Part shown: positions 21,652-28,952 of the stretch, piece after piece
Position numbering within the stretch: position 1 is the first letter of the stretch
Layout: each line of letters starts with the position of its first letter
Source of the DNA: Escherichia coli
GTDB lineage: Bacteria; Pseudomonadota; Gammaproteobacteria; Enterobacterales; Enterobacteriaceae
NCBI RefSeq assembly: GCF_003334385.1
Contig: NZ_QOWN01000051.1
Length of the DNA: 32,463 nt
Reading direction: 5' to 3' (one strand)
Translations under genes and position numbers: made by a program
The notes under the pieces: model-generated
Told to the model about the DNA's origin: nothing
Seen by the model: the letters and a program-made list of their open reading frames with translations, nothing else
The model's database searches: none

Positions 21652-22245
21652 ATGGAAAAATACCTGCACCTGTTAAGTCGGGGAGATAAAATTGGCCTGA
21701 CATTGATTCGTCTGAGTATTGCAATTGTTTTTATGTGGATTGGGTTATTAAAGTTTGTCCCTTACGAGGCAGACAGCATTACACCATTCGTCGCAAACAG
21801 TCCACTAATGTCGTTCTTTTATGAACACCCGGAAGACTATAAACAGTATCTGACTCACGAAGGCGAATACAAACCAGAAGCAAGGGCATGGCAAACGGCC
21901 AATAATACCTATGGTTTTTCCAACGGTCTTGGCGTCGTGGAGGTGATTATTGCTCTGCTGGTTTTGGCTAATCCTGTCAATCGCTGGTTAGGTTTATTGG
22001 GAGGACTGATGGCATTTACCACGCCGCTGGTAACACTCTCATTTTTAATCACCACCCCGGAGGCATGGGTACCCGCATTGGGTGACGCTCATCATGGTTT
22101 CCCTTATTTATCCGGTGCTGGTCGCCTGGTATTGAAAGATACTCTGATGCTGGCAGGTGCAGTCATGATAATGGCAGATTCGGCGCGGGAAATTCTTAAA
22201 CAACGCAGTAATGAATCCAGTTCAACGTTAAAAACTGAATATTGA
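21652..22245 (+). CDS. rclC: Inner-membrane protein of the rcl operon (197 aa)
   Basis: Multi-TM hydrophobic ORF immediately after rclB; start chosen at MEKYLHLL. Confidence 0.85.
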   Translation: MEKYLHLLSRGDKIGLTLIRLSIAIVFMWIGLLKFVPYEADSITPFVANSPLMSFFYEHPEDYKQYLTHEGEYKPEARAWQTANNTYGFSNGLGVVEVIIALLVLANPVNRWLGLLGGLMAFTTPLVTLSFLITTPEAWVPALGDAHHGFPYLSGAGRLVLKDTLMLAGAVMIMADSAREILKQRSNESSSTLKTEY

Positions 22246-22403
22246 TAATCCGAACACTGTCTGTTGTTCACTTTTTCAGGCGTCAGGCCCCCTTTCTGAT
22301 GATGAAGCCTGACGCCATATTACCGGAGATATGACAGAGTGAAGATCAATATCACTCCCTGTTAAAAGGTTTTTGTCGTCTTAGGTAAAATACATGATTA
22401 ATA

Positions 22404-22571
22404 TCAATCATGTATTTTTACAGCAAGACAACCACGAACAAATTCAGGATTAAAATGTTTTACCGACTCCCCAACATAACCCAAATCAAGCGAACTAATT
22501 TGTGCCATTTCTTTATCTGTCAGTGAGAAATCGATTTTTGATGGGCATCTGCAATACTCTGAAGCAGACTA
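22404..22571 (-). pseudogene. C-terminal remnant of an aldo-keto-reductase-like gene (ykgQ-like pseudogene)
   Basis: Hand translation of the minus strand gives ...KIDFSLTDKEMAQISSLDLGYVGESVKHFNPEFVRGCLAVKIHD*, resembling AKR C-termini; an in-frame stop sits immediately upstream and another frame carries a further fragment (...VCFVVPENREV...), so the gene is disrupted. Confidence 0.4.
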
Positions 22572-22834
22572 TACGGAAAATTCCACTGTCAGTCCCTCCA
22601 TTAGGCATGAACAATGAGTCTACGTTAAAACGTAACCTCAAAGTAGTATGTGGATTTTGATATCACTTATGCAAAAAATTCATTAATAATGTAGGACTGA
22701 AACCTCTCTATTTTCGGGGACAACGAAGCAGACGCTACCAGTGCTTTTGCCTTCGCCCTTGCTATTTTTGATACACTTAGGGCCCAGGGTATAACGAAAA
22801 TGTGCGATATGACAAAGAATTAACGGAGAATGAG

Positions 22835-23686
22835 ATGATCAGGCAGAATATTCTACAGCAGCTCCTGGAGTGGATTGAGTGCAATCTTGAGCACCCTATT
22901 TCAATCGAAGATATCGCACAGAAATCTGGCTACAGCAGACGCAACATCCAGCTTCTGTTCCGAAATTTCATGCATGTGCCTTTGGGAGAATACATTCGCA
23001 AACGAAGGCTTTGTCGTGCCGCCATTCTTGTCCGGCTCACCGCGAAATCTATGCTTGATATTGCACTCTCTTTGCATTTTGATTCACAGCAGTCATTCAG
23101 CCGCGAATTTAAAAAGTTATTCGGCTGCTCTCCCCGTGAATACCGCCACCGTGATTATTGGGATCTCGCAAATATCTTCCCTTCTTTTTTAATACGTCAA
23201 CAGCAAAAGACGGAGTGTAGATTAATCAACTTTCCTGAGACACCTATTTTTGGCAACTCATTTAAATATGACATTGAAGTGTCGAATAAATCACCGGATG
23301 AAGAAGTCAAACTACGACGTCATCATTTAGCCAGATGTATGAAGAATTTTAAGACGGATATCTATTTCGTTTCCACGTTTGAACCGTCAACAAAATCGGT
23401 CGATTTGCTCACGGTTGAAACTTTTGCTGGTACGGTATGTGAATATGCTGACATGCCAAAAGAGTGGACAACGACCCGAGGACTTTATGCCTCTTTCCGT
23501 TATGAAGGAAACTGGGAAAATTATCCTGACTGGGTGCGTAACATCTATCTGATAGAGTTACCTGCCAGGGGGTTAGCCAGAGTGAACGGCAGCGATATTG
23601 AGCGCTTTTATTACAATGAAGATTTCGTAGAAAAGGATGGCAATGATGTTGTTTGCGAAATTTTTATTCCCGTTCGTCCGGTTTAG
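22835..23686 (+). CDS. ykgA: AraC-family regulator with N-terminal HTH and C-terminal GyrI-like effector domain, apparently full length (283 aa)
   Basis: AraC-type HTH near the N-terminus (ISIEDIAQKSGYSRRNIQLLFRNF...FSREFKKLFGCSPREYR). Start chosen at MIRQNILQQLLEW. Confidence 0.8.
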   Translation: MIRQNILQQLLEWIECNLEHPISIEDIAQKSGYSRRNIQLLFRNFMHVPLGEYIRKRRLCRAAILVRLTAKSMLDIALSLHFDSQQSFSREFKKLFGCSPREYRHRDYWDLANIFPSFLIRQQQKTECRLINFPETPIFGNSFKYDIEVSNKSPDEEVKLRRHHLARCMKNFKTDIYFVSTFEPSTKSVDLLTVETFAGTVCEYADMPKEWTTTRGLYASFRYEGNWENYPDWVRNIYLIELPARGLARVNGSDIERFYYNEDFVEKDGNDVVCEIFIPVRPV

Positions 23687-23714
23687 TTGGTCACTATCTC
23701 TTATTGAGTTTTAT

Positions 23715-23750
23715 CCTTGCCTGATACTATTTAATCAGTATCAGGCAAGG
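23715..23750. terminator. Perfect 14-bp inverted repeat (CCTTGCCTGATACT / AGTATCAGGCAAGG, 8-nt loop) between convergent ykgA and eaeH
   Basis: Directly visible; no strong T-tract on either side, so terminator function is an inference. Confidence 0.45.
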
Positions 23751-23825
23751 TATTCAGTGAATAATGGCGTTGAATATTTCAACACCATTATTCTTTATTA
23801 GATCGTAACTTTCATACTATTCAAA

Positions 23826-26800
23826 TTATGGCATCTCCTCCTCGCCATTTTCAGTCTCTGCAGCAACGGCGTTAATTGTCACCTTCACAGGCGTCATTTC
23901 GTACCCGCCATACGTCAGTGCGTTGAATGTGAACGTATAGACACCTGGCTTGCTGGTACTAAATGTACGCGTGATTTTCCCACCTGAGAAATGGTCAGCC
24001 TTCGACGGCAGGAATTGATAATCCTTCTCCGTCACTCCTTCCGGAGCCTCAATGTCGACCCACATACTTCCTCCTACGGGATTGACTCCCGCCATCAGGG
24101 TAACCGTCATTGTTGCAGTAGTCTTCCCGTCCGCCACCAGAGAATCTACACGTTCTGGAGATGCGGCGAGCACCGCGTTTTTATCATCCGCGACGAATTT
24201 AGATTCAGCAGTTTTCGTCGATACCTGACCGTTGGCCTGTTCCACTTTCGCCGTGAGTGTATATGTCGCTGCGATAGTGGTAGAGCCGGTGAAAACAGCC
24301 TGTCCTTGCTCATTAGTTTTCGCCGTCCCTTTAGGATCCAGAACTAAATTTTCCGAGCTGGCAGTCAGCGTCACGTCGCTATCCTTCAACAGGTTGTTAT
24401 TGGCATCAGTCACCGTAACTTTATACGTCTGTTTGGTTTTGCCATCCGCCACTGCACGGTTGCCAATCACCTCAATACTGGAGATGGTCGCCGTAGTCTT
24501 ATCGGCCACAAACGTTACAGACTGCGCATTCGAAGGCTGGTCATTTCCTGCCGACGCCGTGATCTCATACGTTCCGGCAGTCACGGAGACCACTTTCAGT
24601 TCCGCTTTACCCTCCTTGTCGGCGTTCACCATGATATTACCGTCTGCAAGCGGTTTGACGCCCCGAGGCAGATTAAAGACGACCACAGCGCCAGGCAGAA
24701 GGTTGCCGTATTGATCCTTAACCGTTGCCGTCAGCGTAAAGGCATCATTGTCGTTTGCCACTTTTGGCGTGCTGCCATCAACCTCCAGGGTCGCCTGACC
24801 GGTACTGAAATCCGCCTTGAATTTCACCGTAACCGTCTTCTGAGCATTATTCACTGAGGCCGTGATGCTGTGTTCCCCCGCAACCGTTGACATAAGCTCA
24901 ATGTCCACTTTCCCTGCCGCATTGGTTGTTACTGTATTCCCCGTCTTGCTGGTCACACCCTGCGGTAAAGTCAGCGTAACTTCTTGCCCCTGCAACGGGT
25001 TACCATAGCTGTCCACGACGGTCAGGGTTATCTGGTTAGCAGACTGTCCATTAGCCAGTTGGTTATTAACCTTCACTGTCATATCACGAATCTCAGCCTT
25101 AGATGCGTCACCTGCAACGTTCAGCACCAGTGGCTGAGCAACGGCATTTTGGCCGTTCACTCGCGGCATCACAGACAACTGACCCGCGGCAGATCCCAGC
25201 GTTAAGGTCGCCACGTAGACCCCATTACCTTTCTCTGTCCAGTTTCCTGCTGAAGGACGCTCACTCCCCGTGCTGGCGGCACCGCTAAACACTGGTGCAT
25301 CTGGCTTCAGCCCGGTGACCGGGTTCCCGTACGCATCCTTCACGGTGAAGGTGAGTTCCGTCGTCATTTTGACGGTCGGAGCCTTATTGTCCGCAACAAG
25401 CGTAGAGTTCGCTGATGACATCTCTCCGGCGATGACCGTCAACTGCGCGGCTTCGGTGGCTGCTGGCTGGCCGTTGAAGAGCGGCATGACACGAAGCTCG
25501 CCCGTCTTTCCGCCTGTAGTTAACGTAGCAACATAGGAACAGTCACCTTTTTCGGTCCAACTGGAAACGGTCGCCCCTTCAGAGGCGGTCCCCGTCAAAC
25601 TTGCCGACAACGAAAGACCACTGATAGTGTTGCCATGTGCATCTTTTGCAATAAGCGTCACGGTTGTGCTTTCGCCGGCTTTTACGTGATCTTCTGCGAC
25701 AGAGACTTTCGACTGGTTTGAAGATAACGCATCAGCCACCACGGTTACTTTTGCCGCATTTGCTGCCGCATCCTGTCCATTTAGCTTCGGCATAACTTCT
25801 AATTCACCCGCCGTAGAGCCGAGAGTAATCTGCGCAGTCCACGTCCCATCACCATTATTTGTCCAGCCAGATGCCGTAGAACCTACAGCAGCGGCACCCG
25901 CTAATGACGGCGCTTCCGGCGTGAGGCTGGTCACAGGGTTGTCATAGGCATCTTTTGCCGTCCAGATTGCCGTAACTGTACCGCCAACCACCGGTTTATC
26001 AGGATTCAGGGTGATGGACGAATGTGCTGCATCAAGCGGACCGGCAACAAACTTCAGCGTTTGTTGTAATGTGCCCAGCTGATACTGCTCGCTGAAAGCA
26101 CGCACAACAACGTTTCCGGCACGGGTCGAAGAAACCGTGGCGCTGTAAACGCCTGGTTTTATTTCCGAAATGGCACCAACGGTTACACCATTAGTGTCTT
26201 GCGGAACAAATCGCAAGCGGCTGGCTTCTCCCGTCACCGGATTACCCTCGGAGTCCACCGCAGTCAACGTCAACGTATAGGCTTGCTGACCATCAGCAAC
26301 CACATCACCTGACGGCTCGTTAGCGCTCAGGGTGGAGTTTGCCACATCCATCATCGTGGCCCGCAGTTCTGCAGTGACGGTTTTGCTCATGCCATCAACG
26401 CTAACAGTAATCGTTGCCTCACCTGACTGCGTTCCGGTAGTAAAGACAGACTGATACACCCCTGCTTCAGTTTCGGTGAACTCACCCAGTGTTGGCTTTG
26501 CCTGTGATTTAGTGGCCTTCAGGGAACGAGTCACAATATTTCCAGCCGGTTTGAAGGCTAGTTCAGTCTTGATCTGATCTTTCATGCCCGTGACTGGCTG
26601 CCCCTCGGCGTCGCGCAGAGACAGCACCAGCGGTCTTTGCTCATTACCGTTAGCAAGCATTTGAATACGGCTCTGACCGTCAAGCGTTAACGCCGTGCGA
26701 TCGGCGCTCATACCTGCTCCGGTAATGACCACCTCTGTCTGCACGCGTTTTGAGGCATTGCCTTTGTTATCGTAGGCAACCGCAGAAATCGCATAATAAT

Positions 26801-28082
26801 TGTCTTTGCCTGGACGATAAGCCGGGAGCGTTACTTGCCACTGACTACCCTGACCGGTAATTTTGCCACCCTCAGCCAGTAATGACGGCGCTTCCCACTG
26901 CACATTTTTCAGTCCGTGAGTTGCTTTGCTGACCACAAGCCCCAGGGAAAGTGTCTGACCACCCTTACCTTCAATACGTTCAGGCAGAGCAATACGGATC
27001 ACTTCAGATTTGCGGTACTCAAGAACGATGTTGTTATTACGCTCAACCAGGTCATAGCGGCTGCCTGCCAGTACCCGACGCTCGCGAATGCTGTCTGTAT
27101 CGAGTTGTTTCGCCAGAGGTTCGCCAATCCGATAATTAACTTCCAGGCCAAAGCGAGTGTCATTCTCACCACTCTTGCCCTGCTTATGCCCGGCGCTCAG
27201 TGTCAGAAGAGGCACTGGCGTATAGGTCACCTCGGCAGAAATAGCATGCGGGTCTTTCTGGCGCTTATCTTTACCAAACAGCCCGACTTCATCGCCATAA
27301 TACTGTTCATACATCAGGCTTGCGCCAAGCTGCGGCCAGGCGGGTAAATAGCCCTCAGCACGAATATCCCAGCCATTCGCCGGGCGTTCCTGATAATCCT
27401 CAATATCCGGCGATTTTTTCCAGCCAGAAGCCCGAATATAACCATTGGCGCTCAGTTTCAGATAATCGCGCCAGTATTCCGCACCAACACCAATGCGGGT
27501 ATGACTACGGGATAAATCATGATCGATAAAAGTATTCACCCCCGCCATCCAGTCATTTCCTGAAAAATGACGCCAGCCAAAACCAATATTTGACTGAGTA
27601 CGATCGTCTGTACGATGTATTGCCCCCTGAGTGAACAACATATTTGTCGGCGTATCATAAATCGGATAAAGCATTTCCAGCGAAGAATCCTTCAGCGAGA
27701 AATCTTTATCGACATTCAGTTTGACGCGCGCAGTACCATATTTCCCGAGCCACTCCTGTATTTCCTGGTTAGCTTTAGCTGTGGCCATTCCGGTAATAAA
27801 GTTACGTGTCGCATCGCTATCTGGCTGACTGCTTAAAAATGTCCCGGCATTTGCGGCAAACGACGCGACATTTTTCTCCACGTTATTATCAGCAGTTACC
27901 GTAGTATTTCCCATGCTCAACCGTGGCTGAACCGCATGCTGCGCACGTGCCGCCATTACTGGGGTAAAGGTGACAGCGAGTGGAAAAAGAACCTGAACAG
28001 AGATATTTGCCCACGCCACGCAGCGGGCCAGAACTGAATAACGAAATCGTGATTGTTTATGACCTGTTTTATAATGTGACAT
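23826..28082 (-). CDS. eaeH: Intimin/invasin-family inverse autotransporter adhesin (FdeC/EaeH type), full length, 1418 aa
   Basis: N-terminal signal-like segment, then a beta-barrel-sized region, then a long tail of tandem Ig-like modules with recurring WTEKGNGVYVATLTLGSAAGQLSVMPRVNGQ-type motifs and T/V/S-rich beta-strand composition. Uninterrupted here. Confidence 0.9.
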   Translation of the reverse strand: MSHYKTGHKQSRFRYSVLARCVAWANISVQVLFPLAVTFTPVMAARAQHAVQPRLSMGNTTVTADNNVEKNVASFAANAGTFLSSQPDSDATRNFITGMATAKANQEIQEWLGKYGTARVKLNVDKDFSLKDSSLEMLYPIYDTPTNMLFTQGAIHRTDDRTQSNIGFGWRHFSGNDWMAGVNTFIDHDLSRSHTRIGVGAEYWRDYLKLSANGYIRASGWKKSPDIEDYQERPANGWDIRAEGYLPAWPQLGASLMYEQYYGDEVGLFGKDKRQKDPHAISAEVTYTPVPLLTLSAGHKQGKSGENDTRFGLEVNYRIGEPLAKQLDTDSIRERRVLAGSRYDLVERNNNIVLEYRKSEVIRIALPERIEGKGGQTLSLGLVVSKATHGLKNVQWEAPSLLAEGGKITGQGSQWQVTLPAYRPGKDNYYAISAVAYDNKGNASKRVQTEVVITGAGMSADRTALTLDGQSRIQMLANGNEQRPLVLSLRDAEGQPVTGMKDQIKTELAFKPAGNIVTRSLKATKSQAKPTLGEFTETEAGVYQSVFTTGTQSGEATITVSVDGMSKTVTAELRATMMDVANSTLSANEPSGDVVADGQQAYTLTLTAVDSEGNPVTGEASRLRFVPQDTNGVTVGAISEIKPGVYSATVSSTRAGNVVVRAFSEQYQLGTLQQTLKFVAGPLDAAHSSITLNPDKPVVGGTVTAIWTAKDAYDNPVTSLTPEAPSLAGAAAVGSTASGWTNNGDGTWTAQITLGSTAGELEVMPKLNGQDAAANAAKVTVVADALSSNQSKVSVAEDHVKAGESTTVTLIAKDAHGNTISGLSLSASLTGTASEGATVSSWTEKGDCSYVATLTTGGKTGELRVMPLFNGQPAATEAAQLTVIAGEMSSANSTLVADNKAPTVKMTTELTFTVKDAYGNPVTGLKPDAPVFSGAASTGSERPSAGNWTEKGNGVYVATLTLGSAAGQLSVMPRVNGQNAVAQPLVLNVAGDASKAEIRDMTVKVNNQLANGQSANQITLTVVDSYGNPLQGQEVTLTLPQGVTSKTGNTVTTNAAGKVDIELMSTVAGEHSITASVNNAQKTVTVKFKADFSTGQATLEVDGSTPKVANDNDAFTLTATVKDQYGNLLPGAVVVFNLPRGVKPLADGNIMVNADKEGKAELKVVSVTAGTYEITASAGNDQPSNAQSVTFVADKTTATISSIEVIGNRAVADGKTKQTYKVTVTDANNNLLKDSDVTLTASSENLVLDPKGTAKTNEQGQAVFTGSTTIAATYTLTAKVEQANGQVSTKTAESKFVADDKNAVLAASPERVDSLVADGKTTATMTVTLMAGVNPVGGSMWVDIEAPEGVTEKDYQFLPSKADHFSGGKITRTFSTSKPGVYTFTFNALTYGGYEMTPVKVTINAVAAETENGEEEMP

Positions 28083-28952
28083 TGAGATAATTTCCTGATG
28101 AACGAATTAACGAACATAGGCAGACACAAATAATGGCGTCTGCTTGTCAGAAAAACCGGGGATTTCCCGATTTCCTTTTCCGCAGAAAAGGAAATACCTT
28201 TATGTAAGAAAGTGCACCGCCACCTAATATATCCAGTGCCTATAGCCACTCATCAGGTGGTTGGGCGCGGGATTATATTTTTATTTATGGGGGAAAATTT
28301 AGCTTTTTGTGCAAGTCATTAAATAGATACCTAAGTTATATTTCTTACTCTGCGGACAGTGAATAATTCACTATTCAGAGTGAATAACAATGACCTGCCT
28401 TTAATTAAAACTATTGGAAATACGTCGAAATAGGTATATATGCCAGGATAAACCAATATATTTTTTATGGATATTCATTTTCCTTCATCGGACTGTAAAT
28501 TGCGGAGATATCGAACTTGCACTACCCATCGCAACACTCAAACAGATTTATGAATTTCGTTCATAACCCCTGACAAATTCTGCCGTCTAATCGAGCTTTT
28601 CCCTTTACGTTATGCTTCTCATGAACGATAACACAACTTGTTCATGAATTAACCATTCCGGATAAACTATGGGATCAAATTCAGGCATCGAAAGGAACTG
28701 GCTGGTTTCCGTTAATGGATTAAATATCTATTATTCTCCCGAGAGTAAAACTATCAAATCAATGAGTAACCGATACAGCCTCACAAATTCTTTCAGATAA
28801 TTAACCCGTCACTGCGGCACGTTCTCTCATAAGGCGTGCCTGCAGTGTAATCCAGTATGTATCCGGCATAGTTGACGGTTTAATAGAACTCAATTCCTCT
28901 CCCAGGTCACCAACAACGATATCTTGTATAACACCCCAGGAGATACGACATT

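Follow-up and report, generated by a model that had tools for sequence, protein, structure and literature searches.

The ykgQ relic between rclC and ykgA of Escherichia coli: deletion anatomy, allele frequency, and an adjacent stem-loop

Gene content around the rclC-ykgA spacer

The window, that is, the whole stretch of 32,463 nucleotides of Escherichia coli chromosomal DNA analyzed here (RefSeq assembly GCF_003334385.1, contig NZ_QOWN01000051.1), carries rclA (19943/19970-21295) followed by rclB and by rclC (21652-22245), the final gene of rclABC, all on the plus strand. The limits of rclC come from the ORF list and from PGAP, whose annotation of the same sequence in K-12 was transferred to the window. 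Then follow a spacer of 589 bp (22246-22834), the gene ykgA (22835-23686, plus strand), coding for a Rob-like regulator of the AraC family, and an intact fdeC/eaeH gene on the minus strand (23826-28082). The spacer was 100% identical to its K-12 counterpart, and the relic that it holds on the minus strand is not new: it is the pseudogene ykgQ (b4631), already annotated in the K-12 reference as well as by PGAP. Our additions are the exact anatomy of the deletions, the frequency of the allele, and evidence that the intact gene appears to be selectively maintained elsewhere. The spacer also contains a GC-rich stem-loop close to rclC, an AT-rich palindrome, and a control region retained from the lost gene.

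Both ykgA and fdeC/eaeH are uninterrupted in the window, whereas in K-12 both carry IS3 and ykgA is a truncated pseudogene; the window therefore comes from a strain other than K-12. The RobA model matched residues 4 to 281 of YkgA with a score below its curated cutoff. Between ca. 23400 and 24870, divergence from the O157 and EC11 types reached 10 to 39% per 100 nt, compared with ca. 1% in the preceding sequence. This divergent stretch runs from the final third of ykgA through the ykgA-fdeC spacer into the 3' end of fdeC, with a 2-codon indel and with substitutions clustered in the part of ykgA that encodes the GyrI-like domain, and it has the look of a recombination block linked to the adhesin gene. 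A hairpin on the minus strand (23713-23752), located between the convergent stops of ykgA and fdeC, is probably their shared terminator; its sub-threshold Rfam matches to microRNA precursors reflect only the hairpin shape. At the left end of the window, two tandem copies of naRNA4 (REP325/CssrE; 1-160, plus strand) scored above the Rfam gathering threshold. Beyond fdeC/eaeH, ca. 3 kb (28083-31100) had no ORF of at least 150 aa; the counterpart interval in K-12 holds ykgR and the pseudogene ykgP.

Remains of the reductase gene and its two deletions

The largest piece of the relic (22404-22532, minus strand) corresponds to residues 248 to 289 and the TGA stop of an aldo-keto reductase (AKR). PGAP labels the identical K-12 sequence "aldo/keto reductase, incomplete, missing N-terminus," and ykgQ of MG1655 (317439-317567) maps exactly to these positions. 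When the intact O157 AKR was compared with the whole window by tblastn, residues 248 to 289 aligned with 22532-22407(-) (E = 4e-22, 97.6% identity), and a second match placed residues 199 to 223 at 22579-22502(-) in another frame (E = 5e-4). The orthologs of Klebsiella, Vibrio, and Marinomonas recovered the same C-terminal piece with E values of ca. 1e-21 to 1e-23. The second match reflects a middle scrap of 47 bp (LLQSIADAHQKSIS; 22533-22570, to 22572, minus strand) coding for about residues 203 to 216, in a frame other than that of the C-terminal piece. The third piece is the residual 5' end of the ORF (22569-22586, minus strand), which reads GTG GAA TTT TCC GTA and then TAG. The remaining residues (1 to 5, about 201 to 217, and 248 to 289) lie in three different frames. 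The sequence-only reading had placed a frame-disrupted AKR-like C-terminus on the minus strand at 22404-22571, limits that proved almost exact to the base for the C-terminal piece plus the scrap; the original GTG start and the four codons after it (22572-22586) lie just beyond them. Sequence, position between rclC and ykgA, and PGAP label are the same as those of ykgQ in K-12. The annotation there covers only the 129-bp C-terminal piece, leaving the 47-bp scrap, the residual start, and both deletion junctions unannotated.

That this similarity might be compositional chance is a reading to which we give no credence. The one observation in its favor is that the generic AKR model of Pfam did not match the 42-aa remnant. 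Pfam misses this peptide because it consists mostly of a lineage-specific C-terminal tail, and recognition therefore rests on the orthologs. Against chance stand the E value and identity obtained with the O157 protein, the values of ca. 1e-22 obtained with orthologs from three other genera, the collinearity of the three pieces with a gene that is intact at the same locus in ca. 2,950 genomes, and the agreement of two independent annotations (PGAP and the MG1655 record). No evidence against the pseudogene reading was found among these data.

Base-level alignment with the genomes of O157:H7 and SE15, which carry the whole gene, showed that the window allele is the intact allele minus two deletions. 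Window positions 22524-22572 align to 2880-2928 of the intact allele L002, in which the coding sequence, aligned to the residual start in the window, begins at 3529. The first deletion removed 100 bp, and its junction (22524-22532) is the one surviving copy of a 9-bp direct repeat, TGAGAAATC, whose two copies in L002 (2780-2788 and 2880-2888) flank the lost segment. The second removed 587 bp between what are now 22571 and 22572, with a 2-bp microhomology (AT) at the junction; the TAG after the residual start was formed there. Two nucleotides to the left of this junction, at 22569, the window has a C where the intact alleles have a T, and the junction was identical in the window, K-12, EC11, and STK77-E. 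Thus, the frame is indeed disrupted, as had been proposed, but by two internal deletions rather than by point frameshifts.

The ancestral state would have been a 289-aa AKR gene, convergent with rclC and divergent from ykgA, from which two internal deletions in one lineage took out codons 6 to 200 and 217 to 247. From the signature of 9-bp direct repeats, we infer a slipped-strand or microhomology-mediated event for the 100-bp deletion; at the 587-bp deletion the microhomology is 2 bp. Because translation from the old start now meets a TAG after five codons, the allele can no longer yield an AKR. The window copy encodes neither the catalytic tetrad nor the (alpha/beta)8 barrel of a working enzyme: the putative tetrad Asp-Tyr-Lys-His, which we take to be D44, Y49, K78, and H112 by motif and from knowledge of the family, maps entirely to the deleted part. 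In addition, the K-12-type remnant has a nonsynonymous E-to-D change.

The intact gene and the spread of the short allele

A formerly intact oxidoreductase had been postulated for this spacer, and O157:H7 and SE15 have one at exactly this position, an 870-bp gene of 289 codons for amino acids that converges on rclC and diverges from ykgA. Its product matched the NCBIfam DkgA model over residues 6 to 265 (E = 1e-69) and the structure 1vp5 (E = 9e-85), and PF00248 is precomputed on all of its homologs, which together indicate a genuine AKR. Given that its scores were far under the NCBIfam equivalog cutoffs for DkgA (234.3 versus 425 bits) and DkgB (164.1 versus 327 bits), the protein is a separate paralog. 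Like AKRs of the DkgA/DkgB and YvgN/YtbE types, it aligns to 1vp5, 3b3d, 3d3f (YvgN), and 1mzr (DkgA) and shares the motif positions of the Asp-Tyr-Lys-His tetrad, but it adds a conserved C-terminal tail of 24 aa outside the generic models and, in the window, its gene is destroyed.

The dN/dS ratio of intact copies was 0.04 to 0.06, whether they were compared with one another in E. coli or with those of Salmonella salamae and Vibrio, values that point to strong purifying selection. Orthologs with 80 to 87% identity were found in Klebsiella, Kluyvera, Enterobacter, S. salamae, and Vibrio, in unrelated neighborhoods and without a ykgA-like gene, and the rclC loci of other genera had neither the AKR nor ykgA downstream. 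Within this sample, the rclC-AKR-ykgA arrangement is specific to Escherichia. Control of the AKR by YkgA was considered as well and is weakened by the orthologs elsewhere that lack an AraC-family neighbor and by the spacer itself, in which no marbox-like site was found at up to 2 mismatches. As a separate observation, the AKR protein (P0063, P0071, P0094, and others; L041) was ca. 80% identical between Enterobacterales and Vibrio/Marinomonas; its gene stands alone in unrelated contexts, and synonymous sites are saturated. These features suggest either very tight constraint or horizontal transfer, or a combination of the two.

In order to place the short allele within the species, we used 5,426 complete E. 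coli genomes. The spacer was present in 5,064 of them, and 2,927 covered at least 80% of the intact-length allele. Deleted segment 1 was found in 2,952 genomes and deleted segment 2 in 2,950, so that about 2,950 of the 5,426 have the intact 289-aa AKR at the locus. Both deletions together occur in ca. 2,100 genomes, or some 40% of the E. coli sequenced, among them K-12, BL21, and O104:H4. With a difference of only 2 genomes between the two segment counts, linkage of the deletions is almost perfect, and a spread sample of 60 rows contained no single-deletion intermediate. The double-deletion allele was found in phylogroup A, in part of B1, and in the EC11-type background. In the divergent background of EC11 and STK77-E, the junctions were identical, including the C at 22569, in an allele otherwise like the intact O157 type. 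Such a pattern indicates one origin, with later descent and recombination, rather than recurrent deletion. The double deletion thus appears, from these alignments, to be one old haplotype, which would have arisen once and then spread to its present share of the sequenced strains.

We regard as weak the further proposal that such a relic marks a rearrangement hot spot, and these data speak against it. At least 80% of the spacer query was covered in 4,992 of 5,067 locus-bearing records (98.5%), a level reached by both main configurations, the deletions belong to a single haplotype, and insertions of IS1 or IS903B were only sporadic. The exceptions were an IS1 within the remnant, an IS903B in an intact gene, and a replacement bounded by IS1. 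The last type was seen in LB858871 (L006, 5060-10059), where IS1 lies in the loop of the GC-rich hairpin, homology to the window ends at 22304, and, downstream of the IS1, a hypothetical gene and a large gene with a NACHT domain, possibly a defense island, stand in place of the AKR relic and ykgA. A different kind of anomaly was NZ_CP026085.1, labeled "DH5alpha" (4.83 Mb), which has an intact AKR allele of 1,277 bp, unlike the K-12 records RV308 and MG1655, and is probably not a true K-12 derivative.

The relic itself is of little consequence overall, and what we add to it is descriptive. Because the gene is intact, and by its dN/dS strongly selected, in ca. 2,950 genomes, K-12 would be a natural knockout of a conserved enzyme. 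For studies of the Rob paralog YkgA or of the AKR, strains like O157:H7 or isolates of B2 are preferable to K-12.

Stem-loops and control sequences left in the spacer

Thirty-four nucleotides past the rclC stop lies a GC-rich stem-loop (22279-22316) with a perfect stem of 10 bp and a loop of 18 nt. Its arms, GGCGTCAGGC (22279-22288) and GCCTGACGCC (22307-22316), are complementary at 10 of 10 positions, with 8 G-C pairs, and its folding energy of -19.7 kcal/mol compares with -7.7 ± 2.0 for shuffled sequences (z = -5.9), none of 200 shuffles being as good. We estimate that chance alone would give ca. 0.02 perfect 10-bp inverted repeats with loops of <30 nt in 589 bp. The inverted repeat pointed out in the sequence-only reading is real. 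However, it has no U-tract in either 3' tail, neither on the rclC strand (AUAUUACC, plus) nor on the other (UGAAAAAG, minus); on the rclC strand, a T5 run precedes the stem instead. The loop also exceeds the 3 to 8 nt expected of an intrinsic terminator, with only a 2-bp inner helix predicted inside it. A consensus scan of the spacer for promoters and terminators returned no terminator-like site, and Rfam gave no match in 22246-22834 at E values of up to 1, nor at gathering thresholds in a search of the whole window.

With a 59-nt query and a sensitive blastn mode, the hairpin was found at a median of 1 place per genome, which rules out a dispersed repeat of the REP/BIME kind. It resembles those palindromes in being stable, GC rich, extragenic, located in a 3' untranslated region (UTR), without a U-tract, and a possible block to exonucleases, but it is single copy and has no match to a Rfam model of the REP family; the genuine REP325/naRNA4 elements of this window are those at its left end. 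Among six E. coli alleles, SNPs were found in the loop and flanks of the hairpin, and the stem was invariant in all but one, the EC11-type allele. There, the loop is completely different and the stem has one uncompensated G-to-A change, yet the predicted energy is still -21.3 kcal/mol. A stem that is kept while its loop is replaced offers, in this comparison of alleles, modest support for selection on the structure.

The EC11 and STK77-E variant (ca. 176 genomes) has a further peculiarity. At 1492-1570 of its sequences (L004/L005), which correspond to window 22240-22306, divergence is strong across the rclC 3' end, the left arm, and the loop, and near-identity resumes with the right arm. Since the divergence ends at the right arm, a recombination breakpoint appears to lie inside the hairpin.

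Across species, we compared the rclC loci of 31 others, among which only Salmonella arizonae and diarizonae kept the order rclABC. Both have an unrelated canonical terminator ca. 30 nt past rclC. In the other genera sampled, no copy of the hairpin followed rclC, and none was found beside the AKR orthologs of Klebsiella, Vibrio, and S. salamae.

The second structure in the spacer is an AT-rich, near-perfect palindrome of 32 bp (AAAATACATGATTAAT/ATCAATCATGTATTTT; 22387-22418), centered on the AKR stop codon. Its 16-nt arms are 94% complementary and bordered by A4 at one end and T5 at the other, and its folding energy is -13 to -14, with z scores of about -6 for both strands. No variation was seen in the coding arm, and SE15 and AF57 have substitutions that break pairs in the noncoding arm. 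Although its stem is weak, the element may serve the convergent rclC and AKR genes as a weak bidirectional terminator.

The rclABC operon is barely expressed without HOCl. In the Term-seq tables of Adams et al. (2021), obtained under conditions that did not induce rclABC, rclC, ykgQ, and ykgA have no 3' end assigned to them. That the hairpin is the working Rho-independent terminator of the operon, as the sequence-only reading had suggested, accords with its place soon after the stop codon in a convergent intergenic region, its strong GC stem, the invariance of that stem in all but one of the alleles, and the canonical terminator at the same relative position in the two salmonellae; but a 3' tail, AUAUUACCGG, without a U-run, a T5 on the wrong (upstream) side of the stem, the long loop, the empty pattern scan, and, as weak evidence given the lack of induction, the missing rclC end in the Term-seq tables make this unlikely. 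Less likely still is that the AT-rich palindrome is the real bidirectional terminator of rclC and, in intact strains, of the AKR, leaving the GC-rich hairpin as only a stabilizer or incidental: the A4-stem-T5 shape and the z scores on both strands speak for such an element, whereas there are only two G-C pairs above an A-U-rich base, it overlaps the AKR stop codon, the noncoding arm is broken in SE15-type strains, and the Term-seq tables report no 3' ends there.

The GC-rich hairpin is not a canonical terminator, and our best reading is a putative 3'-UTR structure with a stabilizing or weakly terminating role. From its position in the shared 3' region of two convergent genes, we infer that it could block exonucleases after Rho-dependent or read-through termination or act as a weak intrinsic terminator. 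The absence of a U-tract, the 18-nt loop, the empty scan, the uncompensated change in the EC11-type stem, and, weakly, the missing rclC end in the Term-seq tables argue against either role, and this best reading, of a stem-loop that sets or shields the 3' end of the rclABC mRNA, falls slightly short of being probable.

Toward ykgA, the divergent control region of the AKR and ykgA, with 5' UTRs and promoters, is retained (22587-22834), with 5 differences from O157 over 248 bp. The consensus scan found a single promoter-like site in the spacer (22362-22391, plus strand), fewer than in shuffled sequences. In K-12, a ChIP-positive predicted site for AtoC, ACTATACGGAAAATTCCACT, was reported in what that 2011 paper already named the "ykgA-ykgQ" intergenic region (PMC3118216). 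We located it at 22568-22587 of the window, where it covers the 587-bp deletion junction together with the former GTG start of the AKR; the published intergenic site thus actually lies across a deletion scar, and only strains with the deletion allele have it in its exact form.

These remains could mean that the relic has been co-opted, with the promoter and 5' end of the AKR driving a new noncoding RNA, or with one of two candidate small ORFs (34 aa, 22404-22508; 42 aa, 22513-22641; both minus strand) being functional. The almost unchanged promoter region and start codon and the AtoC site would fit such a reading. Nevertheless, we consider it very improbable, since Rfam has no match here, the MG1655 reference annotates only the ykgQ pseudogene in the interval and no small-protein gene, no Term-seq end is labeled ykgQ, one strain that appears to be viable has IS1 within the remnant, and the K-12-type remnant has changed an amino acid. 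The small-protein genes ykgS, ykgU, and ykgV were also considered as occupants of the spacer and rejected, as ykgU and ykgV map elsewhere and none of them is annotated in MG1655 313000-321000. Improbable too, to a lesser degree, is a more eventful account in which loss of the AKR was adaptive, recombination spread the null allele across phylogroups, and YkgA was left an orphan, or in which the HOCl-induced rclABC mRNA has in the conserved GC-rich stem-loop a functional element of its 3' UTR. The spacer is, with high probability, the nonfunctional wreck of a DkgA-like AKR gene, ykgQ, that would have suffered its double deletion once, beside a hairpin past the rclC stop.

A neighboring RNA end does appear in the Term-seq tables of Adams et al. 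(2021). It lies inside rclB, ca. 13 nt before the rclB stop and just upstream of rclC, at MG1655 318344 (minus strand), which our coordinate mapping places at window position ca. 21627 (plus strand).
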